A DNA stretch of 64,000 nt from Phycisphaeraceae bacterium. GTDB taxonomy: Bacteria > Planctomycetota > Phycisphaerae > Phycisphaerales > Phycisphaeraceae. The position numbers and the translations under genes were made by a program. Under the pieces are notes generated by a model. It made no database searches, was not told the DNA's origin, and was given only the letters and a program-made list of their open reading frames with translations. The stretch is from contig JANQKT010000029.1 of NCBI GenBank assembly GCA_028280965.1, positions 260 through 64,259 on the forward strand, given 5' to 3'. Below, piece by piece: positions 464 to 31,974 of this stretch (the first letter of the stretch is position 1; every line of letters starts with the position of its first letter).

Positions 464-724
464 ATGTCTGACGAAGAGATGAGCAATAAGCTATTTGTTG
501 TTCGATCTGGCGGGCATGATTACTTGCTCCGAGATATGGGCCGTGAGGAGTTTCTCGGCATCTCATGTATTGCCGGCGTGTATTACGATCGCAAAGGCAA
601 GGCTTACATCAAAGATCAGCTGATGCGCATTCCTATTGAGCGCGTTGAATCGATTGTTGAGTTCGCATCTATCGATGAATACCACGATGCTGTTCAGCAC
701 TATTTCGCAGATCAAGCTGTTTAA
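464..724 (+). CDS. Hypothetical protein (86 aa)
   Basis: Clean ATG ORF filling the gap after accC; more AT-rich than its neighbours; no recognisable motif. Confidence 0.55.
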   Translation: MSDEEMSNKLFVVRSGGHDYLLRDMGREEFLGISCIAGVYYDRKGKAYIKDQLMRIPIERVESIVEFASIDEYHDAVQHYFADQAV

Positions 725-765
725 TTAGCGGGTCATAGCAACCCCGGATTAGTAATGTTCCATGG

Positions 766-1524
766 TTATCGCTTGTGCTCCGGGCTGTGGAAATCACTCA
801 TGCAGCCCGCGTCCCAGGCGTCGGGCATGTTGCCGTGGGCGGGGATGCCGCCCCGGTCCTTGAGCATGCGGGCCAGGTGCAGGCAGTTCCAGACGAGGAA
901 GGTCGTGTTGCGGTTAGTAAAGTCGTTCTCCGGCCCGCCGCTGCCGGGGTCGCGATAGCTCGGGCCCGGGCCGGCCTCGCCCATCCAGCCCGCGTCCGCC
1001 TGCGGGGGCACGGTGTAGCCGATGTGCGACAGCGAGAAGAGGATGTTCATCGCGCAGTGCTTGACGCCGTCCTCGTTGCCGGTGATGAGCGTCGCGCCGA
1101 CCTTGCCGTAGTCGCGGTACTGGCCCTTTTCGTTGAACGAGTGCGTGTAGCCGTACATCCGCTCGAGCGTGCGGTTGCAGACCGACGACTTCTCGCCCAG
1201 CCAGACGCTGGTGCAGAGGATGAGGATGTCGCAGGCGTCCACTTCTTTCTGGATGATCGGCCAGTCGTCCTTGTCCCACTCCGGCGTCTCGGACATGTCC
1301 TTGCCCAGCCCCGCGGCGATGTCGTAGTCCACCGGTCGGATGAGCTTGTGCTGCACGTTGTTGGCATCCAGGATCCCTTGGGCCACAGCGATCAGCCCCT
1401 CGGTGTGCGACATCCTTGGGCTGCGTTCGAGCGTGCAGTTGAGGAACAGCACCTTGAGGTCGTCGTATTTCGCCGGGGCGACGGTGCACTCGTGCTTCGT
1501 AATGCGTTGGAGTTGTTCGGTCAT
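766..1524 (-). CDS. Flavodoxin-like / NADPH-dependent FMN reductase family protein
   Basis: LFLNCTL..SHTEGL, DILILCTSVWLGEKSS, GATLITGNEDG typical of the FMN_red family. Confidence 0.8.
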   Translation of the reverse strand: MTEQLQRITKHECTVAPAKYDDLKVLFLNCTLERSPRMSHTEGLIAVAQGILDANNVQHKLIRPVDYDIAAGLGKDMSETPEWDKDDWPIIQKEVDACDILILCTSVWLGEKSSVCNRTLERMYGYTHSFNEKGQYRDYGKVGATLITGNEDGVKHCAMNILFSLSHIGYTVPPQADAGWMGEAGPGPSYRDPGSGGPENDFTNRNTTFLVWNCLHLARMLKDRGGIPAHGNMPDAWDAGCMSDFHSPEHKR

Positions 1525-1640
1525 GAGGGCCCTCAGTCTGTTTCAGAAGTATCGCGTACCCAACCGCAGGCAAGGCGGGATTGTTCCCCAGTTTAGCGGC
1601 CGACGCGAAGCGTCCCGTGCGAATCATGTTAAGCCGCCGT

Positions 1641-2267
1641 TCAGCCCGCCCAGTCCGCCTTGACCTGCAGCGCATCATCCAGCATCACCAGGTACTCATC
1701 CCGCGGGACCTCAACAACCCCGAACTGCTCGAGGTGCGGGTTGACGAACTGGACATCCAGCAGCCGGTACCCGCAGCCGCGCAGTTGCTCGATGAGCCAG
1801 GCGTAGCAGACCTGCGAGGCATCGGGCTCGTGGGAGAACATGGACTCGCCGAAGAAGGCGGCGCCGATCGCGACGCCGTAGAGCCCGCCGACGAGTTGAT
1901 TGCCGCGCCAGGCCTCGACGCTGTGGGCGAAGCCGTTTTGGTAGAGCGCGGTGTACACCGCCTCGATCTCCGGGCTGATCCACGTGCCTGCCTCGTGGTC
2001 ACGCGGTGCGATCGCGCAGGCGTGGATCACCTCGGCGAAGCGGCGGTCGGTCGTCACCATAAGCCCGCCGTTGCGGATGCGCTTGGCCAGGGATCGGCGG
2101 ACCCTGAACGCGCCCAGCGGGTCGCCCTCACGGAACGGCTGGACCGCGCGGGGGTCCGGCGAGTACCAGCCGATCCCTCCGGCCCGGCCGTCGGCCATGG
2201 GGAAAAACCCTTGGCAGTAGGCATTGATCAGCAGTTCGGGCGTGATGGGCGTGGCCGATTCGGTCAT
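1641..2267 (-). CDS. aat: Leucyl/phenylalanyl-tRNA--protein transferase
   Basis: AYCQGFFPM, WYSPDPR, AHSVEAW, GGLYGVAIGAAFFGESMF, LLDVQF, HLEQFG. Confidence 0.93.
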   Translation of the reverse strand: MTESATPITPELLINAYCQGFFPMADGRAGGIGWYSPDPRAVQPFREGDPLGAFRVRRSLAKRIRNGGLMVTTDRRFAEVIHACAIAPRDHEAGTWISPEIEAVYTALYQNGFAHSVEAWRGNQLVGGLYGVAIGAAFFGESMFSHEPDASQVCYAWLIEQLRGCGYRLLDVQFVNPHLEQFGVVEVPRDEYLVMLDDALQVKADWAG

Positions 2268-2389
2268 CGGGCGGTCGCGTGGTCCGGGGTGTTGGAATAC
2301 TTTCAGCGGCGGCTCGATTAATGTAGCCGAACCGCCCGCTCGGGCCCGATCCTTTCACCGCGTTTTACCGCACAACCCAGGGCAACCCG

Positions 2390-2770
2390 ATGAGCACGCT
2401 ACTTCAGAAGACCCAGCAGATCATGGACATGCTCAAGGATGGGCAGTTCGTCGAAGGCATGGAGCAGTTCTACGCCGACGATGTCGTCAACATCGAGCCG
2501 ACAGGCGCAACGATCGAGGGCCTGGCCAACCTGGTCGCGCATGAGAAAGAAGTATTGGCCAACGTCGCGGCTTACCACGGTATCGAAGTCAAATCGGTTG
2601 GTGTTGGTGAGGACGATGGCAACGGCAACGGCGTGACCTTCGCAGAGTACAAGCTCAGCGTGGACATGCAAGACGGCAGCAAGTTCAACCCGGATCAGGT
2701 CCAGGTCATCCGCTGGAAGGGCGGCGAGGCCGTGCGCAACACGTTCTACTACAACCCCGCGTTCAACTAA
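2390..2770 (+). CDS. SnoaL-like / NTF2-fold protein
   Basis: EQFYADDVVNIEP..G, Q.IRWKGG...FYY pattern; 126 aa. Confidence 0.7.
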   Translation: MSTLLQKTQQIMDMLKDGQFVEGMEQFYADDVVNIEPTGATIEGLANLVAHEKEVLANVAAYHGIEVKSVGVGEDDGNGNGVTFAEYKLSVDMQDGSKFNPDQVQVIRWKGGEAVRNTFYYNPAFN

Positions 2771-2788
2771 CACAAGCCCAGGGCGGCC

Positions 2789-3289
2789 ATGCTCGTCGAA
2801 ACGCTCCAACCCCTGCTCGCGCCGGTGGTGCTGATCTCGGCCTGCGGGCTGTTGATCATGGCGCTCAACGCGCGGACGATGACGGTGAAAGCCCGCATCC
2901 GGCAGCTGCACCTCGAGCGGTTGACGATCACCGAGAAAGTCGGTGAGGCGGGATCGGCTTCGTCCACGCAGCGGCTGCGATATGAGGGCGTCGGCAACCA
3001 GTCCGACAATCTGCTCCGCCGACTCCAACTGATGCGGGCGGCGCTGATGTGCATGGTAGGCAGCGTCGTGCTGATGCTGATCAGCTCGCTGCTGATCGGA
3101 TTGCATGGCGTGCTGCGGATCACGAGCATCCCCGCGGTTACGGTCTTTGTGCTTGGCCTGCTTAGCATGCTCGCCGGGGCGGCCGTATTTCTGCTGGAGC
3201 TGCGCCTGTCGTTGCGTGAAATCACTTATGAGCACCAGCGCATCATGGCGTTGACGCTACCGGGCGCCGACGAGGGGGGTGCGCAGTGA
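2789..3289 (+). CDS. DUF2721-like membrane protein
   Basis: APVVLISACGLL N-terminus, three hydrophobic segments, FLLELRLS. Confidence 0.75.
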   Translation: MLVETLQPLLAPVVLISACGLLIMALNARTMTVKARIRQLHLERLTITEKVGEAGSASSTQRLRYEGVGNQSDNLLRRLQLMRAALMCMVGSVVLMLISSLLIGLHGVLRITSIPAVTVFVLGLLSMLAGAAVFLLELRLSLREITYEHQRIMALTLPGADEGGAQ

Positions 3290-3678
3290 GGGCGGTGCTC
3301 GCGGCATCCGATGGCGGCAAGGCGCTAACACTGTTCGAGCTGTGTGCCCAGGCGCTGCACATCGCGGCCCTGTGCGTCGGGGCGGTCGGCCTGCTGATCA
3401 TTCTTTACGGCGTTGCCCGCGGGACGGTCAAGCTCCTGGTCACAGAAGTGCGTGGGAGCAAAACGCAAGACCGCAACACGCTGCGGATGGATCTGGGCTA
3501 CTACCTCTTGCTCGGGTTGGAGTTCCTGGTGGCCGCGGACATCATCGAGACGCTTCTCGCGCCCGGCCTCGAGCACGTGCTCGTGCTGGGCGCGATTGTA
3601 TTGATCCGCACGGTCATCAGTATTTCGTTGAACTGGGAACTGAAGCAGCACGCCGAGCACGTGGCGGAGGCAGCATAG
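3286..3678 (+). CDS. DUF1622-like membrane protein
   Basis: RMDLGYYLLLGLEFLVAADIIET...LGAIVLIRTVISISL..E; 4-nt overlap with the upstream gene. Confidence 0.82.
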   Translation: MRAVLAASDGGKALTLFELCAQALHIAALCVGAVGLLIILYGVARGTVKLLVTEVRGSKTQDRNTLRMDLGYYLLLGLEFLVAADIIETLLAPGLEHVLVLGAIVLIRTVISISLNWELKQHAEHVAEAA

Positions 3679-3710
3679 CTGCGATACTACGAAACGTTTG
3701 AGAGGGCAAC

Positions 3711-5705
3711 ATGACCACTAAACGTGTTGAACTGACCTGGCACAAGGCGCTCGATCAGGACGAGCTTCCCGAGGGGCGTGTCAAGACGGTCACGCTGGGC
3801 ACGCAGTCGCTGTGCATGACCCACCACGGCGGGCAGTACGCGGCGCTGTGCAACGCCTGCCCGCACCAGGGCGGCCCGCTGGGCGAGGGCTCGATCGAGA
3901 ACGGGATGCTGCGCTGCCCCTGGCACGGCTGGGACTTCGACCCGACGACCGGCAAGCCGCCGGGCGGCTACGACGACGGTGTGCCGACCTACCCGGTTGA
4001 GGTGCGCGGAGACGGCGTTTACGTCGGCATCGAAGAAGACAAAACGCACACTCAGGATGTGTCGGATGTCATGGTGCAGACGATGGTCAGCTGGGGCGTG
4101 CGGTGGTGCTTCGGGATGGTGGGGCACTCGAACCTGTACGTCGCCGACGCGCTGCGCCGGGCAGGATCGAATGGCCGGCTGAGTTACATCGGCATCCGCC
4201 ACGAGGGTGCCGCCTCGTTCGCCGCCAGTGCGTATGGCAAGCTGACGGGCCGCCCGGCGTCTTGCCTGGCGATCGCCGGGCCGGGCGCGACGAACCTGCT
4301 GACCGGCTTGTGGGATGCGCACGTGGATCGCGCGCCGCTGCTCGCGCTGACCGGGCAGGTCTCGACGCAGGTGCTCGGCCGACACAACTTCCAGGAGCTG
4401 CCGCTGGACAAGGCGTTCGGCGGCGTCGCGGAGTACACGCAGACCGTGCTGCCCGGCTCGAACCACGCCGAGCTGATGGCCCTGGCGTGCAAGAGCGCGA
4501 TTACAACACGGTCGGTCTCGCATCTGGTTTTCCCGGATGAGGTGGCCGGGCTTGAGCAGCCGGACGCGAAGCCGACGATACCGGAAGGGCGCCTGCCCGA
4601 CCGCGCAGTCGCGCCGCCTAAGGATGCGATCAGTCACGCATGCTCAATGCTCAAGCGCGCGAAGCGACCAGTCATCATCGTCGGGCACGGGGCGCGCTAC
4701 AACATGGACGCGATTACCGCGCTCGCTGAAGTGCTCAAGTGCCCGGTGCTGACGACGTTCAAGGGCAAGGGCCTGATCGCGGACCACGGCGCGGTTGAAG
4801 ACGGGCGGCACCCGCTCGGTGGCGGGGTGCTGGGCCGTTCGGGCACGCCCATCGCTTCGTGGTTTATGAACGAGAGCGACCTGTTGCTGGTACTGGGCGC
4901 AAGTTTCTCGAACCACACCGGCATCACGCCGAAGAAGCCGACGATCCAGATCGACGACGACCCGATGATGCTGGCCAAGTTCCATTCGGTGGACTGCCCG
5001 GTGCTCGGCTCGCTCGAGGCGACGCTGCCGATGCTGATCGACGCGGTCAAGCCCGGCCACGCGAGCGGCGACCACACCGCCGAGGTCGCCGAGCGCTGGC
5101 GGATCTGGCGGGAAGAGAAGGCGAGCCGCCTCGCCGATGATCGCGGCATGGGTGTCAGCTCGATCGCGGTGTTCGATGCGCTCACGCGCCTGGCACCTCA
5201 GGACGCGATCATGCCCGTCGATGTCGGCAACAACACCTACAGCTTCGGCCGGTACTTCGAGTGCTCACGCCAGGCCGTGCTGATGTCCGGCTACCTCGGT
5301 TCGATCGGCTTCGGCCTGCCCGCGGCGCTGGGCGCCTGGGCCGCGACGCAGGAGCAGGGCTCGCCCTACGCCGGCCGGAAGGTCATCAGCATCTCCGGCG
5401 ACGGCGGCTTCGGCCAGTATGCCATGGAGTTCACCACCGCGGTCAGGTATGGCATGGATCTCACGCACGTGCTTTTGAACAACAGCAACCTCGGCAAGAT
5501 CACCAAGGAGCAGCGCGCCGGCGAATGGCCGGTCTGGCAGACCGAACTGACCAACCCGGGCTTCGCCAGGTTCGCAGAGAGCTGCGGCGGCGTGGGGATC
5601 AAAGTCGAGAAGGCGGATGAGCTAGGCGACGCGATCAAGGCGGCGCTCGCGGTTCGTGATGGCCCGTCGTTGATTGAGGTGGTGGCGGATCAGGAGCTGA
5701 TCTAG
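3711..5705 (+). CDS. Thiamine-pyrophosphate enzyme (pyruvate oxidase-like) with N-terminal Rieske [2Fe-2S] domain
   Basis: Rieske CPH...CPWH; RHEGAASFAA; GPGATN; GDGGF...NN TPP motif. Confidence 0.88.
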   Translation: MTTKRVELTWHKALDQDELPEGRVKTVTLGTQSLCMTHHGGQYAALCNACPHQGGPLGEGSIENGMLRCPWHGWDFDPTTGKPPGGYDDGVPTYPVEVRGDGVYVGIEEDKTHTQDVSDVMVQTMVSWGVRWCFGMVGHSNLYVADALRRAGSNGRLSYIGIRHEGAASFAASAYGKLTGRPASCLAIAGPGATNLLTGLWDAHVDRAPLLALTGQVSTQVLGRHNFQELPLDKAFGGVAEYTQTVLPGSNHAELMALACKSAITTRSVSHLVFPDEVAGLEQPDAKPTIPEGRLPDRAVAPPKDAISHACSMLKRAKRPVIIVGHGARYNMDAITALAEVLKCPVLTTFKGKGLIADHGAVEDGRHPLGGGVLGRSGTPIASWFMNESDLLLVLGASFSNHTGITPKKPTIQIDDDPMMLAKFHSVDCPVLGSLEATLPMLIDAVKPGHASGDHTAEVAERWRIWREEKASRLADDRGMGVSSIAVFDALTRLAPQDAIMPVDVGNNTYSFGRYFECSRQAVLMSGYLGSIGFGLPAALGAWAATQEQGSPYAGRKVISISGDGGFGQYAMEFTTAVRYGMDLTHVLLNNSNLGKITKEQRAGEWPVWQTELTNPGFARFAESCGGVGIKVEKADELGDAIKAALAVRDGPSLIEVVADQELI

Positions 5706-11288: not shown

Positions 11289-11713
11289 CACGGTTCTCAC
11301 GAGCAATCTCCCGCCCCTTACGGGCTCACGGCGGGATTCGATACGCCGACACCTGCAACGCTGATCACGTAGTCTACAACAACCATGCGTTATGCCGCGA
11401 GTTGCGATTTCCATCTTGTGCGTGTGTAAAGCATTGCCTTAAATCAGACTTCCTGCATGGTAGGCGGGTACTGCCCAGGCCGACAGACATCGTCTCTGTT
11501 GGAGTCATGCCATTGGGTTTCGGACCTCGATTGTTTTGTGGCGGCCGTTGAATGGGTGTCCCTCTGGCCGGCCTTGGTGATGCCGTTGTGTAGGCGGTAC
11601 GCGCAACCGGTTGAGTGTTTATGTTTTAAGCTCCGGCCTGAGAGGATATCCATGGCCGTATACTTAAGCCCTGGAAGCCTGTCCTTTAACCGAGAGATGA
11701 TGGTGCTGACCCC

Positions 11714-11742
11714 TTGCCCACAAAACCCGGCCCGTGTAGGAT
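11714..11742 (+). promoter_or_regulatory. tRNA-Gly-type promoter, copy 1 (points into cassette A)
   Basis: TTGCCC-N17-(TG)TAGGAT; same layout precedes the other two tRNA-Gly copies. Confidence 0.65.
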
Positions 11743-11771
11743 CATGCATCGCAGAGGCTTAGGCCTGCTCT

Positions 11772-11809
<38 letters not shown>

Positions 11810-12311
11810 CGGCTTGGACCCGATCCTGAAAACTGTTGATAGATAAGTGTTTATTTCATCAAACCCTTGCTGTTGTTTGGCTTGGGGCGCCGCTTTGGTC
11901 ACCTGCCGGACACCTGTTGGTCAGGCACTGGTCATCCGCGATGGCTCGTTTTGGTTGTTATTTGGTTGTTGTTTGATGACCTCCGGGGCTATAGAGATAT
12001 GTGGGAACCTTGGTTAATGCCAACTCAACGGCCTTTAACCATAGAGCTTTAGGGCAAAGGGATCTCTATCCTATTCGCAGACGGGGTATCAAGATGATCA
12101 ATTTGTGCCGATGATGGGCTCGCCGTCGTCAGTCAAATCAATTCGAATATTCAAAGTTACCAGGTCGTATGGACTTGACGTCAAAGGTGATGACGCCGCC
12201 GCCTTTACTTGTGTATCGTTGCAACCATTACAATTATACTGATTTGCCCAGGCAGTACGAGGTACGAAGAATCGCGCAGATACTCTACTATATTTGTATT
12301 AATGATCGCAC

Positions 12312-13163
12312 ATGAATACCAAAATCCTCCATAATGTCTTTATTGCGACTGCGAATGAGATCCTTGATGGACGATATAGAGAGTCCATTCAGGATTTGGG
12401 ACTAGTTGGTAGTCTTTCTGGGCACTACGGGTGGCATGATACTCGTCTAGCAGATTTAGACATATGGACACTCATGCCCTCTTTCTCCAACATTGGAGAC
12501 ATTGTTAAGATATTTGCAGATCTTTACAAAACGCTTCTCAAGCACCACTATCCAGATTCAATCATTCTCTCAGAAGCTGTTGACGGTCCCTATAAGCCAT
12601 CGCTCACCTCTGACAGATCTTCTATCGTGTTCCTTCACGTCTTGCCTGACACCCTAGCAACTTACAGGAATCGATCGCCGTTCACTCGGTACGCATGGAG
12701 AAAATATCCAACACTAGTTACACCGGATGTGTTGAAGCGATTGGCCCCAACGCAGCCGCCATCCATGACAGAATTAAGAGCGGGTCGTTGGGGAACGCGA
12801 GACCTAAAAGCTCAAATTCAGAGCAGTCAAGTTGTGTACACGCATTGGCGAGGATCTGATTCTTTTAGTATCAGATATGAAATGGGGACACCCCAGTTCA
12901 GCGAGTTCTGTATCTACTCTATTTTGACAACGGCAAGAAATGCATGCAGATCGCTAGGTCGTGACGAGGGTGATCGTCTTAATAATGAGGAATTCGCAAA
13001 CTTCATACATGCGAGAACAACCTGCACAAGCGTGCTGGAAGCGGTATATGCCAAATCGCAATCACGTCGGCATGGCCACGATACACTCGATGCAAAGGAG
13101 CTCCGAGCTCTTGCGTTAGCGTGGCTTGAGGAGATTTGGACCATTGTTCCAATGCTTGGTTGA
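12312..13163 (+). CDS. Putative nucleotidyltransferase (Pol-beta superfamily) with helical C-terminal domain
   Basis: hGhhGS (LGLVGS) followed by DLD (ADLDIW); rest unrecognised. Confidence 0.55.
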   Translation: MNTKILHNVFIATANEILDGRYRESIQDLGLVGSLSGHYGWHDTRLADLDIWTLMPSFSNIGDIVKIFADLYKTLLKHHYPDSIILSEAVDGPYKPSLTSDRSSIVFLHVLPDTLATYRNRSPFTRYAWRKYPTLVTPDVLKRLAPTQPPSMTELRAGRWGTRDLKAQIQSSQVVYTHWRGSDSFSIRYEMGTPQFSEFCIYSILTTARNACRSLGRDEGDRLNNEEFANFIHARTTCTSVLEAVYAKSQSRRHGHDTLDAKELRALALAWLEEIWTIVPMLG

Positions 13164-13174
13164 GTTGAAATTCT

Positions 13175-13879
13175 ATGAAACGCACATTTAACTACTATAG
13201 GTACTACGATGAACTCTTCGGCAGATTTCGCAACTATGATGATGACATCGCATTGGTGGAAACTCTCGCTGGCCCGATTAAAGAGCGAACGATCGTAGAG
13301 ATTGGAGCTGGCACGGGAAATCATGTGGCTGCATTGATCAAGAAAGGGGCGAATGTCCAAGCCCTTGATACGAATCCGATTGCGTGCCAGATTCTAAGGG
13401 AGCGTTTCTTGCCGGAGATGGATGTTGATGTTATCCAAGCGTGTGGGCTTAACGAGCCGCTGCAAGGAGACCTATTGTGTTGCTTCTTCCCAATCGCTCA
13501 GGAAGCACTTTGTGTTGATTCGCAAGCGCATAGGCTTGAGAGTTTATTCAACAAAGCAGATTCATTCCGCTCTGGAGTGATCTTTGAATGGATTGATATC
13601 GATAAGCATCTTGCAAAGTACGCGGGGCAATCGACCGACCTTGCCAATCCCTCAGAGAGTCTATGTATTAGCTTGACGAGTACTGAGGTCGATCAAGGCG
13701 CTTCTCTTTCCTACAGGGGGCACCTTGGTGGAGTGCCATTCGATTTCTCTGTAACCCTCCAAAGACTCTCGGAGTCAAACCTGCGAGAATTAGCGGGGAG
13801 ACTCGGGTTGCGGGCGAGTGCATTGCCAGTGTCAGCGTCCGGAAGAAAGAAGCTCTGGCACGTCTGCTTAACGCGCTAA
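13175..13879 (+). CDS. Class I SAM-dependent methyltransferase
   Basis: Motif I IVEIGAGTGNH, then ALD; 11 nt after the NTase stop. Confidence 0.8.
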   Translation: MKRTFNYYRYYDELFGRFRNYDDDIALVETLAGPIKERTIVEIGAGTGNHVAALIKKGANVQALDTNPIACQILRERFLPEMDVDVIQACGLNEPLQGDLLCCFFPIAQEALCVDSQAHRLESLFNKADSFRSGVIFEWIDIDKHLAKYAGQSTDLANPSESLCISLTSTEVDQGASLSYRGHLGGVPFDFSVTLQRLSESNLRELAGRLGLRASALPVSASGRKKLWHVCLTR

Positions 13880-14926
13880 ATGCTCAAGGCGACGGGAATA
13901 GGATTGCTCAAACCCCTGCATGTGCGACGCAAGTACATCGGGCGATTCAAGAGCCCGTCGAAAGAGATCAAGCAAATCATCGCACACTTGCTCTGTACTA
14001 CCCTTTTCTGACAAGGCCCATAGCATCGCAGTGTTTCCTCGAGGTGGGCGAGGGGTATCTGAGCGCGGAACAATGCAGTTCAGCAGTGATTGTAACGCCG
14101 TCTTCTCCAATTCCCCGCTATCCACAGCGTCAATCCAGTTTAGATTTGCAATGAGATCGCCGAACTGAAACGACAGGTCGTAAGTGTCACCAGATCCTGC
14201 CTTTATTCGAGTCCATGAGCGCCGAAGAGGCTCTGTGATTGATGACCCAGTATAGAGATGGCATTCTCCGATAGTGTTTTGTAGTCTAGATGTGAATATG
14301 TCCCACCCAGATAACCCGCGGTGGCCAAGTTCATGCTTGAGTAACATTTGCTCTGCCGCTACCAACCATTCTTGCAGCGATCGAGTATTCTCAGTTATCT
14401 GTTTATAAAGAAGTTCAAACACCTCAGCCACGTGGTCAGTGGCAATAGTTATCCTGCCAACTCGTTCATCTGGATAAACGAAGAACTGAAGTGGGTTTGC
14501 GGTAACCAGCGCGGGAGATTTCAGGTAGGAAACGGAAAGGCAGGGATGAATCTCAAAAGACTTCTCGTCAGAGATCCATCCAAATCCATTTGCAACCTGC
14601 CAGAATATGCCTTCTGTTTTGACCCTCGCTGGCGAGTCTAGAGCAATCCGTTGAAGTACTGCGAAGCATTCCTCGTAAGAATGGGGGGCTAACTTTAGGG
14701 CCAGACTCCACTGATCGTGCCGTATGTGGCTCTGCCATTCTTTTGGAGGCTGCTGACAGCGAGGGGGTCTTTCTTGCTCGGATAGTATAGTGCGGCGCCC
14801 TACCGTATGCCAACGGCTAAGTGGAACATCAGGGCTACGAGGAGCCGTGTTAGCCAAATAGCTCCAGTGATCTAATTTAATCAGAGTCTCATGCATTGCG
14901 GACTGATCTACCATTTTACGGGACAA
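13868..14926 (-). CDS. Hypothetical protein with HExxH zinc-peptidase-like motif
   Basis: LLKHELGHRG; start overlaps the upstream SIR2 gene by 19 nt. Confidence 0.6.
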   Translation of the reverse strand: MSRKMVDQSAMHETLIKLDHWSYLANTAPRSPDVPLSRWHTVGRRTILSEQERPPRCQQPPKEWQSHIRHDQWSLALKLAPHSYEECFAVLQRIALDSPARVKTEGIFWQVANGFGWISDEKSFEIHPCLSVSYLKSPALVTANPLQFFVYPDERVGRITIATDHVAEVFELLYKQITENTRSLQEWLVAAEQMLLKHELGHRGLSGWDIFTSRLQNTIGECHLYTGSSITEPLRRSWTRIKAGSGDTYDLSFQFGDLIANLNWIDAVDSGELEKTALQSLLNCIVPRSDTPRPPRGNTAMLWALSEKGSTEQVCDDLLDLFRRALESPDVLASHMQGFEQSYSRRLEHLAR

Positions 14927-17190
14927 ACTCGTGGGTCCTCACCTTCCGTTCCACGGCAGTAATAATCTTGAATCAACAATACACATCTGTCTGCGATATC
15001 TGTTATATCTGCTTCAGAAAGATTCTTTGGTAATCCACGTATCCATTCGTTAAGCTCTCCGACCCGCCGTCCAAAATCTGAATCCGAATAGAGATCAAGG
15101 ATTTCTTCGCGAAACCTGTCTGATATTGATTCAGCATGGCCGCCTGCCTGTGGTACAACGATCACTGGCTTCCCCGCGATTGCAGCAGCCCGAACCTCTT
15201 GCACGGTGCCTTCGAGATTTGAGGGACCCGTAGTTGGTTCATAGCCCTCGCCACCAATCGCAATCAATGCCGCGGTCATCTGCACAAACTCTCTCCAAAG
15301 GTCATCATGTTCCCGCGCCTTAATTCTGACGATGGGGGCATTCACATTGATATATCGCCCACCTCCGCCTTCGCGAAGAACAAATCGCCCGGACAGCGGA
15401 TCAATGCTATAGGCAGCCTCAACTGCCTCACGTCCTACAGTGGGTCCACAGCAAGACGAAACGCGGAAGCTTTGGCTTGCTAAGCGTTTTGCGAGGCCTT
15501 CGGCACATCTCACGGCGATGTCTTTAGCCACTGGAGAATGGCCGCCAAGCGCACGCTTCGCCCCGCGTCCGTCATCTTCAAAGCTGTTTCCGGCAAACCC
15601 CACTATAGGTCTTTGGACGCTCATAACCCCTCTCAAGAGTACGTGCATTAATTGAGAATACGACCGGACGTACTGGGTCATGATGCCGAGTTTCTTGAGT
15701 CTTTCTGCCTGAAGGCTTTGCAGATAGCGGCCAAGTGGATCAGGTTTATATACATCAAGGAACAAGTGTGGCTGATCGCTGCTTGGCTCAAGGGCTTCGC
15801 TTGCAATTAGAGTTCTAATAAATGGATCCCCGAACGAAAGTCCAAGAAAGAGAAATGGGCCAGCGCGATAATCTGCCTTCAATCGATCGAGGATCGCACC
15901 TCGGCGCATCGGGTAATTAGACATCTGTGGCTCAAAGACCGTTGGTGTCCCGGTAGCAAGATCGGCATCTACACCAGCAAGGAAATCTCCATGCAACTTG
16001 AATATGTCACCAGCAGTCCCAGCCGTCAGGGAAAGATCACTTGGCTGTCGTACGATACGGTACAGTTCTTGCGGACAAGTCTCGATAGCCTTCTCAAACA
16101 TGAAGTCATAGTTCGTCGTCCAGATCGAAAACGGCATCAGACGCAGAATTAGACTGTGATAAGCATTGGGGCGTTTTCCATCCCGAAATGAGCTAGAGAA
16201 GAAATTCCTTATCCCTTTGAGGTTCTCCTGATCCGTGGCACCAAGAGTCACAGCATCTAACACACCTAACTCACTAATGAAAGGTGACACCCCCGTCTCA
16301 TCTAGAATAGGGCGATACTGCTGAAGCCAGTCTCCATAACCCGAAGGAATCGAAACGCCAGCTCCACATAGTATTGAAAACCGGCGTTTCAACATCGGAT
16401 CAAGTGTTGTACGAAATAATGATTCGTCGCTACTAGGTAGATTCAGAGGTTGTACGCGTCGTTCTATTGCCTGCAGCGGCTTAAGAGAATCAATTGTGTA
16501 ATCTGCATTGCTCTGAGCAGATGGGGCTGGTTCCTTGGCATAGCTGGCGTGATAATAAGTCCACTGCCCAGATAAAGTTACTTCTTGCTTGACGGAACAA
16601 AAGGTCGCATAATCGACATCAGAATCCCCCACATATAGTAAATCGAACGTACCCGGGGACTTCGTTGAAAATCGAGCCAATGTCTCAATCAGTGTACGTG
16701 GATTGGGTTTCTTGATTCCTGATAGAGAATCATTGCCAACCACATGGTCGATTAGATGCCCTATCCGATGCCTGTCCAGGAACTCGCGGATTTCAGCCTC
16801 AGTCCTAAGCGACAGGATTGCGGTCTTATACCCGAGAGTTCTGGCGCATTCGATGAGCAGTTCGATACCGGTCTGTTTTGATGCGCGTTGGGTTAACCCC
16901 GTTGAGATTGAAGCTCTAAGAAACTGAAGTATCGTCTCCTGTGTTCCAGGCGTAAGCCCATTCTCAACCCAGAACCCCAAATCTTCTACGAGTCGCTCGG
17001 GCCCTCGTAGATTGAGGTATTGCCACGCAGCGGTAATTTTGGGTACCTCATCTGAAGCGGCCGCTTTTCTAATTAAGTCGAGAACCGCTTCTCTGGTATC
17101 AGAGATCGGGCCGTCAAAATCGAATACTGCTACTCGAAGCAAAGTTGCCCCTTTAGGCTCGGCATATTGCTCTATTGAGAAATATGCCAA
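14908..17190 (-). CDS. HAD phosphatase-SIR2-SLOG fusion (ThsA-like core with an added N-terminal HAD domain)
   Basis: HAD: FDFDGPISDT, KKPNP, YVGDSDVD. SIR2: LCGAGVS, WTTNYD, FKLHG, FLGLSFGDP. SLOG: VGFAGN, LIAIGG, GTVQEV..A...GKPVIVVPQAGG. TTG start. Confidence 0.8.
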   Translation of the reverse strand: MAYFSIEQYAEPKGATLLRVAVFDFDGPISDTREAVLDLIRKAAASDEVPKITAAWQYLNLRGPERLVEDLGFWVENGLTPGTQETILQFLRASISTGLTQRASKQTGIELLIECARTLGYKTAILSLRTEAEIREFLDRHRIGHLIDHVVGNDSLSGIKKPNPRTLIETLARFSTKSPGTFDLLYVGDSDVDYATFCSVKQEVTLSGQWTYYHASYAKEPAPSAQSNADYTIDSLKPLQAIERRVQPLNLPSSDESLFRTTLDPMLKRRFSILCGAGVSIPSGYGDWLQQYRPILDETGVSPFISELGVLDAVTLGATDQENLKGIRNFFSSSFRDGKRPNAYHSLILRLMPFSIWTTNYDFMFEKAIETCPQELYRIVRQPSDLSLTAGTAGDIFKLHGDFLAGVDADLATGTPTVFEPQMSNYPMRRGAILDRLKADYRAGPFLFLGLSFGDPFIRTLIASEALEPSSDQPHLFLDVYKPDPLGRYLQSLQAERLKKLGIMTQYVRSYSQLMHVLLRGVMSVQRPIVGFAGNSFEDDGRGAKRALGGHSPVAKDIAVRCAEGLAKRLASQSFRVSSCCGPTVGREAVEAAYSIDPLSGRFVLREGGGGRYINVNAPIVRIKAREHDDLWREFVQMTAALIAIGGEGYEPTTGPSNLEGTVQEVRAAAIAGKPVIVVPQAGGHAESISDRFREEILDLYSDSDFGRRVGELNEWIRGLPKNLSEADITDIADRCVLLIQDYYCRGTEGEDPRVCPVKW

Positions 17191-17604
17191 TTCTGCGAAT
17201 TACTACTCGGAGTATCCTACCTCACTCTGTCTCACCTTCACAACCTCGTCTCAAGCAGGAATTGATCAGCGGAATTGATCTACCCTCACAGTTCATGCCA
17301 AGTTCTTCAACCCACCACGCCTACGGGGCCGATAGCCCAGCGCCGAGTCCGGACGGATCGTGTTGTACTGCCGTGGGTGGCGAATAAACTGGAGATTGCA
17401 GGTTCGAATACTGCGCTCGCCAATCAAGTGACTTGCCTCACAAAAGTACTCGCATTGGTTGAACATAGTGACAGCATAGGGCGTGTGAAAGCTAAACATA
17501 AACACCACTATGGGGTGTAGGACACGGTACTCCCTGCACCTCTTTTTAGTGCTGGTCCTGCAAAAATCTATTTGCTTAAAATAAGAGAGTTAATCCAAGT
17601 GGTT

Positions 17605-24611: not shown

Positions 24612-25107
24612 TCAACCGAATAGCCGATCGACCAGGTCGGCGGCCGAGTTCAGCACCTCGAACCGCCCCCTGGGAAGCACCCGGATATCCGAGCGCTCGG
24701 CCTTGACACCGCCGGTGTTGGCCCTGGAGTGCCTCGCGACCCGGAGCCCGTCGAGTGACGGCAGGGGCTCGCCCGGATCGGCACCATACCAGAGGTGGCT
24801 GTCGATCCGCATCGTCTCGGCGTCGAACATGGTCCACACCACGCAGCCGCTGGGCTTTTCGGCCAGCCGCACGTTGATGTTGACGCTGGCGGTCGAGGAT
24901 CCGACGTGCGATGTCTTGAGCTGGACGTGCCTGATCACGGGGCCCGACCCGACGACCAGGTCGTAGCCCGCGTCGTCGACCTCTGGCGTCAGCACCTCGG
25001 CGAGCCTCCCGGCCAGCCAGAGCCCCCCGCAGTAGCTCGCCCACAAGGACGTGCCGCAGGACGGCCTCGCGGTAGCTGGAGAGCTTGTTGTGCGGCGTGG
25101 CGGGCAT
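24612..25107 (-). pseudogene. PD-(D/E)xK nuclease-like gene with a +1 frameshift in a G6 run (about 25023-25028)
   Basis: SSYREAVLRHVLVGELLR in one frame continues as GLWL...VDDAGYDLVV...RHVQLK in the next; removing one G restores a single ORF. Confidence 0.68.
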
Positions 25108-26501: not shown

Positions 26502-26574
<73 letters not shown>

Positions 26575-26603
26575 GTTGCGGACATAAGCCGCTGCGATCC
26601 ATG

Positions 26604-26632
26604 ATTTTACACCGACGAGGTTTCGTGGGCAA
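26604..26632 (-). promoter_or_regulatory. Promoter of the intact tRNA-Gly
   Basis: TTGCCC-N17-(TG)TAAAAT. Confidence 0.7.
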
Positions 26633-26773
26633 GCGCCTCCGAAATGGAGATGACAACCATGTTTCCAACCAAACGGGCGCCCGGGGGCGTTTCGGTGGCA
26701 CCCCGAGCGACGATCGCTTTTATGTGACCGGTAGGTGACCAATGGTGACTCATGCTCGTTGCATAGCGTCCTA

Positions 26774-27688: not shown

Positions 27689-30600
27689 ATGGAACATAAC
27701 GTGACGAAATATGACGCGACATCGTATGACCCGGCATGGTCTACATCAATCAATTCACGAAATGCCGTGTTATGGCTTGGCAGCAACGCACCATCTCTCT
27801 TAGCCGACAACGAGGCATTGTCAGACCTACTCGAATTACCATGGCAGGCGATATTTGCTGTTAACCCATTAACACCTGTAATGGAAGCTCGAGCCGCACT
27901 ACGCGGCAAAGGTCGGGGGTCAAAACTCCGTATCATTACAGAAGACCCTGCATTTATCGAAATTGGGAATGAATCTGCTCCGGTCTACTGCTTACATGGA
28001 TTGGAGAGTGCGCCTGGCTCCGTTGGGTTAAGCGCACTTCAAAGCCAGCGTCGCTATTTGAATATGCTTACTAAGGTGCCTGCGCATCAATTTCTTTTTT
28101 GCATTGGATTAGATGGCGACAAAGACTTAAAAAAAGTTTCGGAAGGTATTGAATCATCCGCCTCGCCCGGCAAAGCAATCATCTCGTCGGAATTAAGGCC
28201 TCTACTCGATGACCGCGACCTACGAATCCCAGAAGTTATCCTTTGGAATCGAGATGAATCGGAGCTTATATCTAGCTTACGACAGCAAATAATTACAACA
28301 CAAACCGGGGATGCCTATCAGCTACGCTTATTTTCGGATTCTGGCTACATATCTGTCAATTTGTCTGACTGTGAACAACCAGGAAACTTAGTTCTAGACA
28401 AGTACTCACTCATAACAGAGTCAGACTTATCTGTGGCAGGGGAGCCGAGTTCGCAAGATCTGGAAGACTTCCTTACCGACCCCACCAACTCCTGGAAGCC
28501 GTACTCGCTGGGTATACCATGCAAACGGGGGCGAGAGTATGAAGATAACTTGCTCAAACTATTGAGAAAAGCTCTAGAAAAGGGGAAACAGGCTTCCGCA
28601 ACTGCATATATCGAAGTTGAAAGTGGATCTGGAAGTACAACTCTTATTAGGCAAATCAGCCACAGTGCCGCACTTGAAGGTTATCCGGTTCTTGTTGCTC
28701 ACCAGGACTTACGCAGCTTCGATACTCGCCAACTTGATTCGTTCATCAGACTAGCAGAGAAAAAAATAAAAGCGCAAGCCAACCGCATCCTACCCTGGCT
28801 AATAGTCTACGATTCGCCAAACCTCATGGGGGACTTTAGCACTATTTGCCAACTTGGGCGTAAACTCGCAAGGCCAGTAATCATTCTTGTTGCATTGCCG
28901 CACACACTTAATTCCTATAAATCCGATTTGTGGCAAGCAAGTCCTCTAGGACAAGAGTTGCGTAATCGAGTTACCTTGAGCGAAGCCGTAGATATAGGCG
29001 AGCATTTCTCGAAAATATTGCGCCCTGAGCAAAGAAGGAATAAAGAAGAGTGGGCACAGTTTATTGCTGAGGTTAGTAGAAATGGACCGCATGGCACTGA
29101 AAGCTTGTTTTGGATAGCGTTGCGCTTTTGGTTATTGCGGACAAAAGGTGCTAACGAGCCGCTTAAAAATTGGCTTGCCCGATTATTTGACGAAGCTGTT
29201 GGTGATAATCAATTGCTCCGAGCATCTTTACTTGAGATTGCTGCAGTATCCAACTACAGACTAGCGCTTCCACTTTGCTTAATATCTAGAGAGGCTCGCC
29301 CAGTTGTTTTAGATATGGCGAATAACAAATCTAACCCAATATCCTTGGAGAGATTTCGTGGTTCAAAATCTTATGAAATTGGATTCAGTCACCCGCTCAT
29401 CGGCGCCGAGTTAATTCGAATTGCGGAAAACAGTCACGAATCACTAGCGAGTATTGACAAAAATCATTCTTACTCAATTCACGACATAGAGCTTACGCTG
29501 TTCCAGAGACTACTGTCCCGAAAAGAAGCTGGAAAGAATGAATGCAGCGACTTCATTACAGAACTATCTTCTACCGCATTGCGAGTTGATCAGTTTGAAT
29601 TGCCCCGCAACTATGAAGAGAGAGATCGAATAGTTCAGATACTTGAGTCTGTACCCGACCCTGTCTTTGACTCAAATCCTATCTTCTTACATCGTCTTGC
29701 CATCGCAAGACGACACTTGGCTGCAAAACCTCCACATAGTGAACTGTGGTGGACAAAGCCAGAAAATGTTCGAGAACAATTCGAACTGGCCGAATCACAT
29801 ATTAAAGTTGCAATCAACATTACCACCTTAGCAGACGACCCAATCGAGCCACTCGACAATCTCTTTACGACATTGGGAAGAATATATGAGCAATGGTCAG
29901 AATTTGAGTCTTCAGTCGGCGACAAAGATCGTTCCTTAGCCTACGAAGAGGCTGCGGAAAGGGCATATTTATCAGCAGAGCAGTTCAATCCTGACAACAT
30001 AAAGCTTATAAATACACTAGCAAACCGATATCTCAAGCTAGCTCAAAAGAATCCCGGAACACCGGATTCTGTTCGAATGCTTGTTGACGCAATCTCACTA
30101 TATGGACGTGTTTTGGCAACAGAATCTCGCGACAATCGCGATGAAACACTCCAGCATTACGCCTTGGCTCTAAACTTGCTAAAGGATGGTTCAGGCAAAG
30201 CATTATTAGACGATATGATGGCCCGTGGTGAGGAATCTGCATTCATAGCTGCGGCCCAGATACGGTATGCAGAGTCAAACAATGACCCGAGTGAACTTCG
30301 AGGCGTTATTGCATTACTTCAAAAGATCGAAGGCGCATCGAAATCGTGGAGATCTTACGAACTACTGTACACGGTTCTGTCGACGCTCGAGCCATTTAAC
30401 TTTAATCGTCGCCTTGAACTTCTAGATTCGCTTTCTACCACAGAATTCGCATGGCCACTGCAAAAGCTCTTAGAGCGAACGATTCTGTCACATCAAACCG
30501 GTGATCACGCTACTGCAGAAAAACTATATCGTACCATTCGCAAGTCACTCCAGACACGCAATATTCGCTTGTCGATACCTGAAGAAATGAAATTCCTGAT

Positions 30601-30832
30601 GGACCCTGTTGCAAACTATCAAAATGCACTGCGAACAAATGCGACTATTGTTGAAACTTCTCGGGTTGGGGACAGGATGTGGGCAGTTCCTGAGGGCTGG
30701 CAAAATTACAAAGTGCAATTGCGACCCCACTTGTTCCCATATGATTCAATTAAGAGCGGCCAAGAAGTGCCGTGCTGTGTGCAGTTCACTTTCTACGGGC
30801 CCGAAGTCGTACCGGAGACGGAATTGCAATGA
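27689..30832 (+). CDS. Multidomain protein: degenerate SIR2-like, STAND-like P-loop, TPR/helical repeats, possible C-terminal OB-like domain
   Basis: VLWLG / W.AIFAVN / YCLHG / FLFCIG; ESGSGSTT (variant Walker A) and LIVYD (Walker B); TLGRIYEQW and other TPR-like helices; V.FTFYGP C-terminus. Confidence 0.62.
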   Translation: MEHNVTKYDATSYDPAWSTSINSRNAVLWLGSNAPSLLADNEALSDLLELPWQAIFAVNPLTPVMEARAALRGKGRGSKLRIITEDPAFIEIGNESAPVYCLHGLESAPGSVGLSALQSQRRYLNMLTKVPAHQFLFCIGLDGDKDLKKVSEGIESSASPGKAIISSELRPLLDDRDLRIPEVILWNRDESELISSLRQQIITTQTGDAYQLRLFSDSGYISVNLSDCEQPGNLVLDKYSLITESDLSVAGEPSSQDLEDFLTDPTNSWKPYSLGIPCKRGREYEDNLLKLLRKALEKGKQASATAYIEVESGSGSTTLIRQISHSAALEGYPVLVAHQDLRSFDTRQLDSFIRLAEKKIKAQANRILPWLIVYDSPNLMGDFSTICQLGRKLARPVIILVALPHTLNSYKSDLWQASPLGQELRNRVTLSEAVDIGEHFSKILRPEQRRNKEEWAQFIAEVSRNGPHGTESLFWIALRFWLLRTKGANEPLKNWLARLFDEAVGDNQLLRASLLEIAAVSNYRLALPLCLISREARPVVLDMANNKSNPISLERFRGSKSYEIGFSHPLIGAELIRIAENSHESLASIDKNHSYSIHDIELTLFQRLLSRKEAGKNECSDFITELSSTALRVDQFELPRNYEERDRIVQILESVPDPVFDSNPIFLHRLAIARRHLAAKPPHSELWWTKPENVREQFELAESHIKVAINITTLADDPIEPLDNLFTTLGRIYEQWSEFESSVGDKDRSLAYEEAAERAYLSAEQFNPDNIKLINTLANRYLKLAQKNPGTPDSVRMLVDAISLYGRVLATESRDNRDETLQHYALALNLLKDGSGKALLDDMMARGEESAFIAAAQIRYAESNNDPSELRGVIALLQKIEGASKSWRSYELLYTVLSTLEPFNFNRRLELLDSLSTTEFAWPLQKLLERTILSHQTGDHATAEKLYRTIRKSLQTRNIRLSIPEEMKFLMDPVANYQNALRTNATIVETSRVGDRMWAVPEGWQNYKVQLRPHLFPYDSIKSGQEVPCCVQFTFYGPEVVPETELQ

Positions 30833-31647: not shown

Positions 31648-31776
31648 TAGCTGATCATTAGGTGACCAATGGCTGGCCGACATGTAACCAAAACAGCTTT
31701 GCAAGCACATGCAAATGAAGGGCTTATTGTTTTAACTATATCTATATCAAGAGTTTTCGCAGCTGCGTATTAGCCG

Positions 31777-31814
<38 letters not shown>

Positions 31815-31843
31815 GTGAACGGCCTAAGCCGCTGCGACGCATG

Positions 31844-31872
31844 ATCTTACACGGGGCGGATTCCGTGGGCAA
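31844..31872 (-). promoter_or_regulatory. tRNA-Gly-type promoter, copy 3 (points into cassette B)
   Basis: TTGCCC-N17-(TG)TAAGAT. Confidence 0.65.
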
Positions 31873-31974
31873 GCGGCCACGGAACGGCGACGACAACCAC
31901 GTTTCTTTGAAGACCTTTGCGATCATCAAGGCGCAGGGGGAGTACTGATGGCAACAGCTTTGGAACTTGGGGAT

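Follow-up and report, generated by a model that had tools for sequence, protein, structure and literature searches.

The stretch of DNA analysed here (the window) comprises 64,000 nucleotides of contig JANQKT010000029.1 from a Phycisphaeraceae bacterium (assembly GCA_028280965.1). Two of its genes are the subject of this report: one encodes an effector in which a HAD phosphatase domain, a SIR2 domain and a SLOG domain are fused, and the other encodes a probable nucleotidyltransferase (NTase) whose homologues are partners of such effectors in other genomes. They are laid out as follows, with the evidence for each assignment in brackets.

14908..17190, minus strand: gene of the HAD-SIR2-SLOG effector (open reading frame list, Pfam, PADLOC, AlphaFold2 model, Foldseek match to ThsA, Shine-Dalgarno sequence)
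16456..17139, minus strand: N-terminal HAD subfamily IA phosphatase domain, residues about 18-245 (HAD_2 match, conserved residues, cap in the AlphaFold2 model)
15616..16428, minus strand: SIR2 (SIR2_2, ThsA/DSR2/KomC-type) NAD+-binding domain, residues about 255-525 (Pfam, phmmer)
14956..15612, minus strand: C-terminal SLOG domain, residues about 527-745, with LOG-like GG...GTxxE and PQAGG motifs (fold match, weak STALD match)
12312..13163, plus strand: gene of a predicted 283-amino-acid (aa) Pol-beta NTase of the aminoglycoside nucleotidyltransferase (ANT/KNTase) type with a helical C-terminal domain (homology to the gene coupled with the effector elsewhere, DxD motif, AlphaFold2 and Foldseek)

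A first-pass annotation, made from the sequence, had reported a 760-aa open reading frame encoding three fused domains at 14908-17190. This frame is present on the minus strand, starting from TTG, in the open reading frame list and its translation, and every motif that had been quoted (DFDGPISDT, KKP and GDSDVD for HAD; GAGVS, TTNYD and KLHG for SIR2) is found in the translated protein. The plus strand across the same interval is closed by numerous stop codons. The effector gene is real, and its product is confirmed as a three-domain HAD-SIR2-SLOG fusion protein. Translation probably starts at an in-frame TTG at 17142, which would yield a protein of 744 aa, because the Shine-Dalgarno sequence AAGGGG lies 6 nt before this codon, the protein-database copy (P0002) has the same length and the N-termini of relatives agree.

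The N-terminal domain matches Pfam HAD_2 (E 9.6e-15 over residues 22-194), with DFDGPISDT at residues 24-32, KKP at 160-162 and GDSDVD at 188-193. The window copy retains the whole catalytic set, i.e., the DxD pair D24/D26, S127, K161 and the DxxxD pair D189/D193. Among 46 relatives, D24 is kept in 43, D26 in 45, Ser or Thr at position 127 in 46, K161 in 43, D189 in 45 and D193 in 46, and an extra arginine, R129, is kept in all 46; the domain appears to be under selection. In the AlphaFold2 model, helices 32-45, 63-75, 81-103 and 107-118 lie between strand 18-24 and strand 122-126, so that a helical C1 cap separates motif I from motif II. Motifs I-IV and this cap place the domain in HAD subfamily IA, and its nearest solved structures are the phosphoglycolate phosphatases 2yy6 and 2nyv and also beta-phosphoglucomutase. 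A C1 cap is reportedly a marker of the HAD class that acts on small-molecule substrates. Given the cap and the conserved catalytic set, sequence and model indicate that the fused HAD is an active small-molecule phosphatase.

The middle domain is matched by Pfam SIR2_2 (E 4.6e-12 over residues 356-498) and, together with part of the C-terminus, by the PADLOC ThsA1 model (E 9.7e-29 over residues 256-699). GAGVS occupies residues 276-280, TTNYD 358-362 and KLHG 398-401. With phmmer, the SIR2 part finds the ThsA structures 7uxt (9.4e-18), 8wc0, 6lhx and 8bto, at E-values from 1e-11 to 1e-18, and also KomC (8.4e-6). GAGxS, N360 and D362 are kept in all 46 relatives; N360 aligns with N112 of Bacillus cereus ThsA (BcThsA) and H400 with its H152. 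At the position of H400, 45 of the 46 relatives have Asn, and the catalytic His is found only in the window protein and one other member. ThsA, DSR2 and KomC have the catalytic His at the equivalent position, and Asn also occurs there in a subclade of ordinary ThsA-like proteins (P0032, P0034, P0036, P0039 and P0040). To judge from this residue, the Asn-type SIR2 domain of most members might carry out a chemistry other than plain NAD+ hydrolysis.

Assignment of the C-terminal domain to SLOG rests on structure because the Pfam STALD match of the window protein is sub-threshold (E 0.0019, 18.1 bits, under the 24-bit cut-off). Relatives exceed the STALD and LDcluster4 cut-offs (STALD reaches 30.7 bits in relative L014), and Lysine_decarbox, the Pfam family of LOG proper, matches neither the window protein nor the relatives scanned. 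The AlphaFold2 model of the effector, built on 37 sequences, has a mean predicted local distance difference test score (pLDDT) of 80.6 and a predicted template modelling score (pTM) of 0.79, and is confident across all three domains. In Foldseek, the C-terminal two-thirds of the model align with BcThsA (8btp, 8bto and 6lhx) over about 520 columns (E 5e-19 to 1e-17; TM-score by target 0.63-0.65), and the N-terminal part matches the phosphoglycolate phosphatase 2YY6. The first-pass annotation had proposed a ThsA-like SLOG at the C-terminus and had taken failure to predict such a fold as grounds for rejection; the prediction, compared with solved ThsA, does yield a SLOG fold, and the match extends over both the SIR2 and SLOG domains.

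Within the SLOG domain, G534, S579, G586, R606, G647, E665 and G684 are kept in all 46 relatives, and G661 and G683 in 45. In BcThsA, 3'-cyclic ADP-ribose (3'cADPR) is contacted by S290, L326, Q359, R371, K388, the backbone of G289 and G399, and E403, among which E403, G399 and R371 contact its ribose and diphosphate (Manik et al. preprint). When these residues are mapped onto the family by profile alignment (hmmalign), the equivalents of G289, G399 and E403 are conserved in the family and in the window, with E665, G661 and the family's R632 aligning with E403, G399 and R371, respectively. The R371 equivalent remains Arg in 45 of the 46 relatives, and the equivalents of S290, L326, Q359 and K388 are not kept. 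The family pocket motifs SGHGPGVG, RFYLR...SRTAP, GG...GTxxE and PQAGG correspond to SGFGLGVG, RPFPQ, GNK, GVxxE and GATG in ThsA. Since the four contacts are lost and the motifs differ systematically, the family pocket looks suited to a ribose-phosphate ligand and not to 3'cADPR. LOG-type domains natively bind N6-substituted AMP.

The window copy departs further, from ThsA and from its own family alike. At the BcThsA contact sites it has N for S290, P for L326, V for Q359, W for R371 and G for K388, and within the family it carries C580 for a Gly present in 44 of 46 relatives, V616 for an Arg present in 37 and W632 for an Arg present in 45. The motifs had been described as intact-looking, which is correct for the HAD and SIR2 sets of this copy but not for its SLOG sensor pocket (G580C, R616V and R632W). 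As three near-invariant SLOG residues are lost and the SIR2 His is retained, the window copy may respond to a different ligand or may be partly decayed.

The HAD-SIR2-SLOG family is rare, with roughly 35-45 clusters, and is scattered over at least five phyla. A word-seeded search returned about 10 clusters with the same three-domain architecture, none above 31% identity to the window protein. A HMMER scan, exhaustive over 1.84 billion representatives, returned 39 of them at E<=1e-30, some 30 being full-length (700-745 aa), and the next proteins in the ranking were ordinary ThsA-like proteins of 450-490 aa. When one genome per species was scanned by pattern, full-length copies turned up in Terriglobia, Acidobacteriaceae, Actinomycetota and Acidimicrobiales, and also in two Bradyrhizobium, in Xanthobacteraceae and other Alphaproteobacteria, in Burkholderiaceae and in Myxococcales, a spread that covers Acidobacteriota, Actinomycetota, Alpha- and Betaproteobacteria and Myxococcota. 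Occurrence is patchy: the family is present in 2 of 151 species genomes of the genus to which one Bradyrhizobium record (L011) belongs, and an effector homologue is found in none of 40 genomes related to that of the window (14 of the same genus, 10 of the same family and 16 of the same order). As far as the pattern scan reaches, the ThsA-like genes on IMG/VR viral contigs all lack the HAD, and homologues of the partner are absent from these contigs.

In a quick maximum-likelihood tree of the SIR2-SLOG region, the HAD-fused proteins form one clade (SH-aLRT 100) opposite 104 ThsA-like proteins, including BcThsA. Because of this single clade, the HAD fusion, as read from the tree, arose once, and the family is a sister to ThsA and not a ThsA subtype. 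The window protein branches first and has the longest branch in the clade (1.8 substitutions per site); it is the most divergent known member, at no more than 31% identity. The first-pass annotation had named no characterised ThsA with an N-terminal HAD phosphatase. No description of a HAD phosphatase joined to SIR2 and SLOG was found in the literature, the 2015 paper that defined SLOG/STALD lying outside the coverage and possibly containing a passing mention; however, other genomes share the architecture, and relatives are deposited under generic names, e.g., 'HAD hydrolase-like protein' in Bradyrhizobium.

The main context of the gene, the conserved ANT-like NTase, had been overlooked. Effector and partner are translationally coupled in 15 of 17 loci, where a profile search recognises the partner (about 290 aa) in the very next gene after the effector, on the same strand and with overlaps of 4-8 nt; the same arrangement is seen in two further loci found starting from the partner. 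The product of 12312-13163 in the window is homologous to this coupled partner (BLASTP E 7e-24; hmmsearch 4.7e-81), and the window is the only locus in which the partner is uncoupled and on the opposite strand. The partner family comprises about 60 clusters, all labelled 'hypothetical', and has no match by sequence in Pfam or the PDB. Across 53 sequences, D48 and D50 are invariant and G33, S36 and D82 near-invariant. A motif of the form hG[GS]x9-13DxD and a third acidic residue are present, and this signature (G..S..DxD plus the third acidic residue) is the reason why the partner is read as a Pol-beta NTase. The DxD and the third acidic residue are placed like D47, D49 and E87 of AadA, the last of which is named in the entry title 'AadA E87Q'.

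The AlphaFold2 model of the partner has a pLDDT of 92.9 and a pTM of 0.90. Its top Foldseek matches are the aminoglycoside nucleotidyltransferases ANT(3'')(9) (7uy4), AadA (5g4a) and ANT(4') (6nmk), together with 5lpa, with probabilities of 0.99-1.0, TM-scores of 0.47-0.53, E-values of 2e-3 to 1e-2 and identities of 9-11%. CD-NTases, NF90 and TENT enzymes are much weaker structural matches, and MenT and AbiEii are absent from the 50 best-scoring solved structures. Sequence and model together argue that the partner is an ANT/KNTase-like, two-domain NTase, and probably a catalytically active one.

The closest parallel for a phosphatase beside an NAD+-depleting effector is found in the Metis system, in which MisB, a Mg-dependent phosphatase of family HAD_2 (PF13419), removes basal N6-methyl-dAMP (m6dAMP), the motif-I Asp pair of MisB is needed to avert the toxicity of the NAD+-depleting effector, and the effector alone defends (bioRxiv 10.1101/2025.11.05.686725). 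The earlier suggestion that the HAD could act as an off-switch thus has a published precedent, but the fused HAD lacks specific similarity to MisB. In a comparison using the N-terminal 133 aa of two MisB proteins from the supplement of that paper, BLASTP gave E>0.3 and the family HAD profile about 2 bits, which rules out the fused HAD as a MisB orthologue. Both belong to Pfam family PF13419, and no pairing with PF00149 was found among the neighbours searched. The parallel is accordingly to be read as analogy and not as homology.

The conserved gene pair could be a system that depletes NAD+ in the manner of Thoeris but without a TIR protein, and in which a built-in phosphatase erases the signal; it is likely engaged in anti-phage defence by abortive infection, and we give this reading about an even chance. 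In its favour are the domain and fold matches, the coupled partner, the failure to detect a TIR, the conserved HAD and SLOG residues and the Metis and Kongming precedents; the patchy distribution, the island location and some defence genes nearby point to phage defence indirectly. Infection would cause the NTase to make or modify a small nucleotide bearing a phosphomonoester. The SLOG domain would then bind the NTase-derived ligand, for which the ribose-binding Glu and the phosphate-binding Gly and Arg are kept and the 3'cADPR-specific residues are not, and ligand binding would lead the SIR2 domain to consume NAD+. By dephosphorylating stray ligand, the fused HAD would set a threshold and prevent self-intoxication, much as MisB does with m6dAMP in Metis. 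In its most specific form, this becomes a new pathway in two genes, in which an ANT-like writer, distinct from TIR proteins, CD-NTases and cyclases, makes a new phosphomonoester messenger that a SLOG reader detects, a SIR2 executor acts upon and a fused HAD erases; we put this forward tentatively, considering it somewhat unlikely in all its parts.

Several observations weigh against the proposed system. In the first place, there is the Asn at the catalytic His position of 45 of the 46 relatives. Exchange of this His for Ala is said to inactivate both ThsA and DSR2. In KomC, His-to-Ala likewise abolishes activity (bioRxiv 10.1101/2024.12.20.629578; PMC13454610), and because of this and of the family-wide change to Asn, most members may not be simple NADases. 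Secondly, ANT-type enzymes make phosphodiesters on small-molecule hydroxyls, which a HAD phosphatase cannot cleave, and for this reason the link between the HAD and the signal is a conjecture; the fused HAD, as said, is without specific similarity to MisB. Thirdly, the two genes are not always found together. The partner stands alone in Methylopila, and on metagenome contig L028 (6001-8202) a 330-aa partner homologue is followed, 10 nt on, by the gene of a class III nucleotide cyclase of 399 aa (Guanylate_cyc), with no SIR2 effector near the pair; the partner family may therefore plug into other nucleotide-signalling modules. Conversely, two of the 17 effector loci are without the partner. One, in a metagenome-assembled genome of an uncultured Acidobacteriaceae (L018, 7676-8446, plus strand), has in its place a metallo-beta-lactamase-fold hydrolase (Lactamase_B_2, E 1.2e-14), which faintly resembles the anti-Pycsar nuclease Apyc1 (E 0.024). 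Moreover, several loci lie amid housekeeping genes (dnaG/rpoD-yqeY-carA, carD) and not in defence islands, and the window copy has Trp at the R371 equivalent and two further changed pocket residues.

An alternative is that the effector senses a danger signal directly, in the manner of Metis or Kongming. The SLOG domain would bind an infection-specific nucleotide, e.g., a modified mononucleotide arising from breakdown of host DNA or RNA or from a phage enzyme, the HAD would clear its basal level, and the NTase would be a regulator or antitoxin, whose target could be the effector, nucleotidylated in the way that HepT is by MntA, or the ligand, which it would inactivate. Metis follows the same HAD logic with an effector that defends alone, the SLOG domain of the family carries the LOG-like GG...GTxxE and PQAGG motifs, and the two effector loci without partner, the uncoupled partner of the window in another operon and the methyltransferase-like gene that adjoins it there also speak for it. 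Against it stand the translational coupling seen in 15 of 17 loci, which points to the NTase as a core component, and the invariant active site of that enzyme. The fused HAD is similar to MisB only at the superfamily level, and MisA (PF00149) was found neither among the window neighbours nor in the 25 commonest neighbour families at 12 other loci, a search that did not extend to MisC, for which there is no model. Direct sensing is regarded as unlikely, and the NTase-dependent, TIR-less system is retained as the preferred reading.

A further doubt concerns the window copy alone, which might be a degenerating or orphaned relic, the family perhaps being functional elsewhere, an explanation that overlaps with the others. 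It is bound up with the surroundings of the gene. Effector and partner lie on an island of about 6 kb with a GC content of 0.46-0.52 (about 11.5-17.6 kb), compared with 0.62-0.69 around it, and its four genes are arranged as two convergent pairs. The remaining features of the island are as follows.

11707..11814, no strand assigned: left edge, a copy of about 100 nt of the 5' part of tRNA-Gly(ccc) and upstream sequence (inverted repeats)
13175..13879, plus strand: 234-aa class-I S-adenosylmethionine methyltransferase-like gene, 11 nt past the NTase gene (Methyltransf_25 E 2.8e-5, PADLOC mad2 E 5.7e-8)
13868..14926, minus strand: 352-aa ORFan with an HExxH motif, KHELGH (open reading frame whose start overlaps the effector stop by 19 nt)
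17293..17508, minus strand: right edge, C-terminal remnant of a DDE transposase/integrase core (weak rve_3 match, E 0.0078, profile positions 35-66 of 67)

The methyltransferase-like protein scores 25.2 bits with Methyltransf_25, just below the cut-off; a conserved role in the system is ruled out, as no other locus has the gene and the methyltransferase near L007 bears no relation to it. The 352-aa ORFan has no Pfam or PADLOC match and, in a word-seeded search of 5.8 billion clustered proteins, found only itself; being unlike both the partner of about 290 aa and the 437-aa protein of other loci, it was rejected as a conserved partner. It holds the overlap-coupled slot that the NTase occupies in other genomes. 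The remnant at 17293-17508, which encodes ...YNTIRPDSALGYRP..., sits between the effector start and a high-GC gene of 895 aa. The left edge, 11707-11814, is an inverted repeat of 26537-26633 and 31772-31879 (85-86% complementary), and an intact tRNA-Gly gene is located at 26502-26574. Overall, the tRNA-Gly-derived segment occurs in three copies of about 100-130 nt that are 81-86% alike (11707-11814, 26537-26665 and 31772-31905), of which the 11.7-kb copy is inverted. This pattern suggests repeated integration and rearrangement at tRNA-Gly, connecting both low-GC islands of the window. The first of these is a strain-specific acquisition, given that none of the 40 related genomes has an effector homologue.

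Decay of the window copy would explain why only here does the partner lie on the opposite strand, its coupled slot being taken by an ORFan, why C580, V616 and W632 replace near-invariant Gly, Arg and Arg, and why its branch is the longest in the clade, and it would be in keeping with the insertion sequence remnant and the signs of rearrangement on an old island. Yet the frame of 744-760 codons is fully open, and the protein keeps every catalytic residue of its HAD and SIR2 domains as well as most invariants of SLOG. The partner frame is intact, DxD included, and AlphaFold2 models each of the three domains with confidence. A separate functional lineage that has diverged while keeping its catalytic residues would account for the copy just as well. 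That the copy is a relic seems rather improbable.

The second low-GC island, at about 24-32 kb, encodes a 1047-aa protein (27689-30832, plus strand) in which an 'inactive sirtuin' domain at the N-terminus (PF24403, E 8.5e-7) is combined with a domain matching novel STAND NTPase 7 (PF24404, E 1.6e-85); it has no PADLOC match. At the start of this island lies a 144-aa open reading frame (24612-25046, minus strand) with a weak PD-(D/E)XK endonuclease match below the cut-off (PDDEXK_5, E 9.6e-5). By domain assignment, the window would therefore contain a second candidate defence gene with a sirtuin fold, different from the effector gene and 10 kb from it.

The neighbourhoods of the other loci are mixed. 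In a scan of 12 of them, neighbours matched defence models (subtilase, PD-T4-7, CapP, RmrA, mad2 and MmeI-type restriction-modification) and included mobile-element genes, and also tRNA synthetase and transport genes; TIR/SEFIR-like PADLOC matches were obtained for 1 of 87 neighbour proteins. A Peptidase_S8 subtilase (PADLOC 'subtilase', E 2.6e-51) and a protein of about 430-437 aa without assignment stand beside the pair, in varying orientation, in 6 of 17 loci (L003 at 923-3927, L004 at 657-4241, L005 at 3472-5076, L010, L011 and L015). These two genes could form an accessory module or a neighbouring system; as a core component they are ruled out by their presence in those 6 loci only and their absence from the window.

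Housekeeping neighbourhoods at several loci also bear on a non-immune role, in which the fusion would be a three-enzyme protein for processing nucleotides and NAD or RNA ends: the SIR2 domain would be an ADP-ribosyltransferase or NAD-binding domain, SLOG a nucleoside monophosphate N-glycosidase and the NTase an enzyme of nucleotide addition, and the HAD would act on ribose-5-phosphate, ADP-ribose phosphate or an RNA terminal phosphate. The Asn found for the catalytic His in 45 of 46 members would suit such a role, as would the closeness of the HAD to sugar-phosphate and phosphoglycolate phosphatases, the enzymes among SLOG clades and the proposal of sirtuin, HAD and NTase-type enzymes as phage RNA-repair sets (PMC9503650). 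This is nonetheless the least probable account, as the SIR2 is of the SIR2_2 effector type of ThsA, DSR2 and KomC, the family is extremely patchy in its occurrence (2 of the 151 genomes of one genus, none of the 40 relatives here), the window copy sits on a mobile low-GC island, Lysine_decarbox, the LOG-proper family, gives no Pfam match, and neither RNA ligase nor kinase partners were seen among the window neighbours or in the 25 commonest neighbour families.

The signals that define Thoeris-type immunity are cyclic ADP-ribose molecules made by TIR proteins. A TIR-less, NTase-linked sister of ThsA would, if the proposed system is correct, bring a new class of messenger into SIR2/SLOG signalling, and would be a second, independent example of a signal eraser after Metis, one in which the eraser is fused to the effector and can be dissected by point mutations. 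The partner family of about 60 clusters, which has no Pfam model, would gain its first functional hypothesis, and the natural His-to-Asn change in 45 of 46 members poses a testable question, namely whether this SIR2 clade hydrolyses NAD+. Should the family prove metabolic instead, it would caution against labelling every SIR2-SLOG protein a Thoeris effector.

Among known systems, CBASS resembles the pair in that a signal synthase of the Pol-beta fold is linked to an abortive-infection effector. However, the partner, at about 290 aa, does not have the cGAS/DncV-like build of CD-NTases (about 300-400 aa), its TM-scores with CdnC, CdnD and CdnG are 0.17-0.26 (probability 0.1-0.5), and none of the PADLOC CBASS models matches it, so its identification as a CD-NTase was ruled out by the weak structural match. 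Whereas CBASS sensors are SAVED, STING or CARF-like, the sensor of the present family is SLOG. With the ANT(3'')(9)/AadA and ANT(4') enzymes (7UY4, 5G4A and 6NMK) the partner shares an N-terminal Pol-beta NTase domain followed by a C-terminal helical bundle, but it is 9-11% identical to them, belongs to no Pfam family and is linked to a SIR2 effector, not to resistance contexts.

In Kongming, dITP, a non-TIR, non-cyclic nucleotide, switches on the SIR2 NADase KomC (bioRxiv 10.1101/2024.12.20.629578; PMC13454610). The likeness lies in a SIR2 NADase effector gated by a non-TIR nucleotide, and KomC is a detectable SIR2 relative of the effector. Kongming differs in its separate HAM1-like sensor, KomB, in a signal derived from a deaminase and a phage kinase, and in having neither a HAD nor a Pol-beta NTase. 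Metis resembles the proposed system in combining a mononucleotide-gated, NAD+-depleting effector with a HAD_2 phosphatase; it differs in that MisB is a separate protein, its effector is a calcineurin-like NAD+ diphosphatase or a membrane protein, and there is no NTase.

The closest comparison is with ThsA of type I Thoeris (B. cereus; 6LHX, 8BTO/8BTP), as the first-pass annotation had supposed. The two share SIR2_2 and SLOG in the same order and fold, GAGxS, the Asn of TTNYD and, in the window copy, the catalytic His, as well as the SLOG equivalents of G289, G399 and E403. The family differs in an extra N-terminal HAD phosphatase of about 245 aa, in its place outside the ThsA clade, in the replacement of four 3'cADPR contacts and in the change of His to Asn in 45 of 46 relatives. 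Moreover, no ThsB or other TIR protein was detected at the window locus or in the genome, the conserved partner being instead an ANT-like NTase: PF13676 and PF08937 have no match in the whole 4.16-Mb assembly (100% complete by the tool's estimate), on which ground a ThsB/TIR hidden elsewhere was rejected, and Pfam and PADLOC find none among the window neighbours. Among five features that characterise a type I Thoeris ThsA, the SIR2 motifs and catalytic residues and the SLOG fold are thus present, and three (TIR partner, 3'cADPR pocket and clade placement) are not, for which reason the protein is not filed as ThsA. What stands of the original identification is the shared SIR2-SLOG body, by which the effector is a relative of ThsA, though not ThsA in the strict sense.

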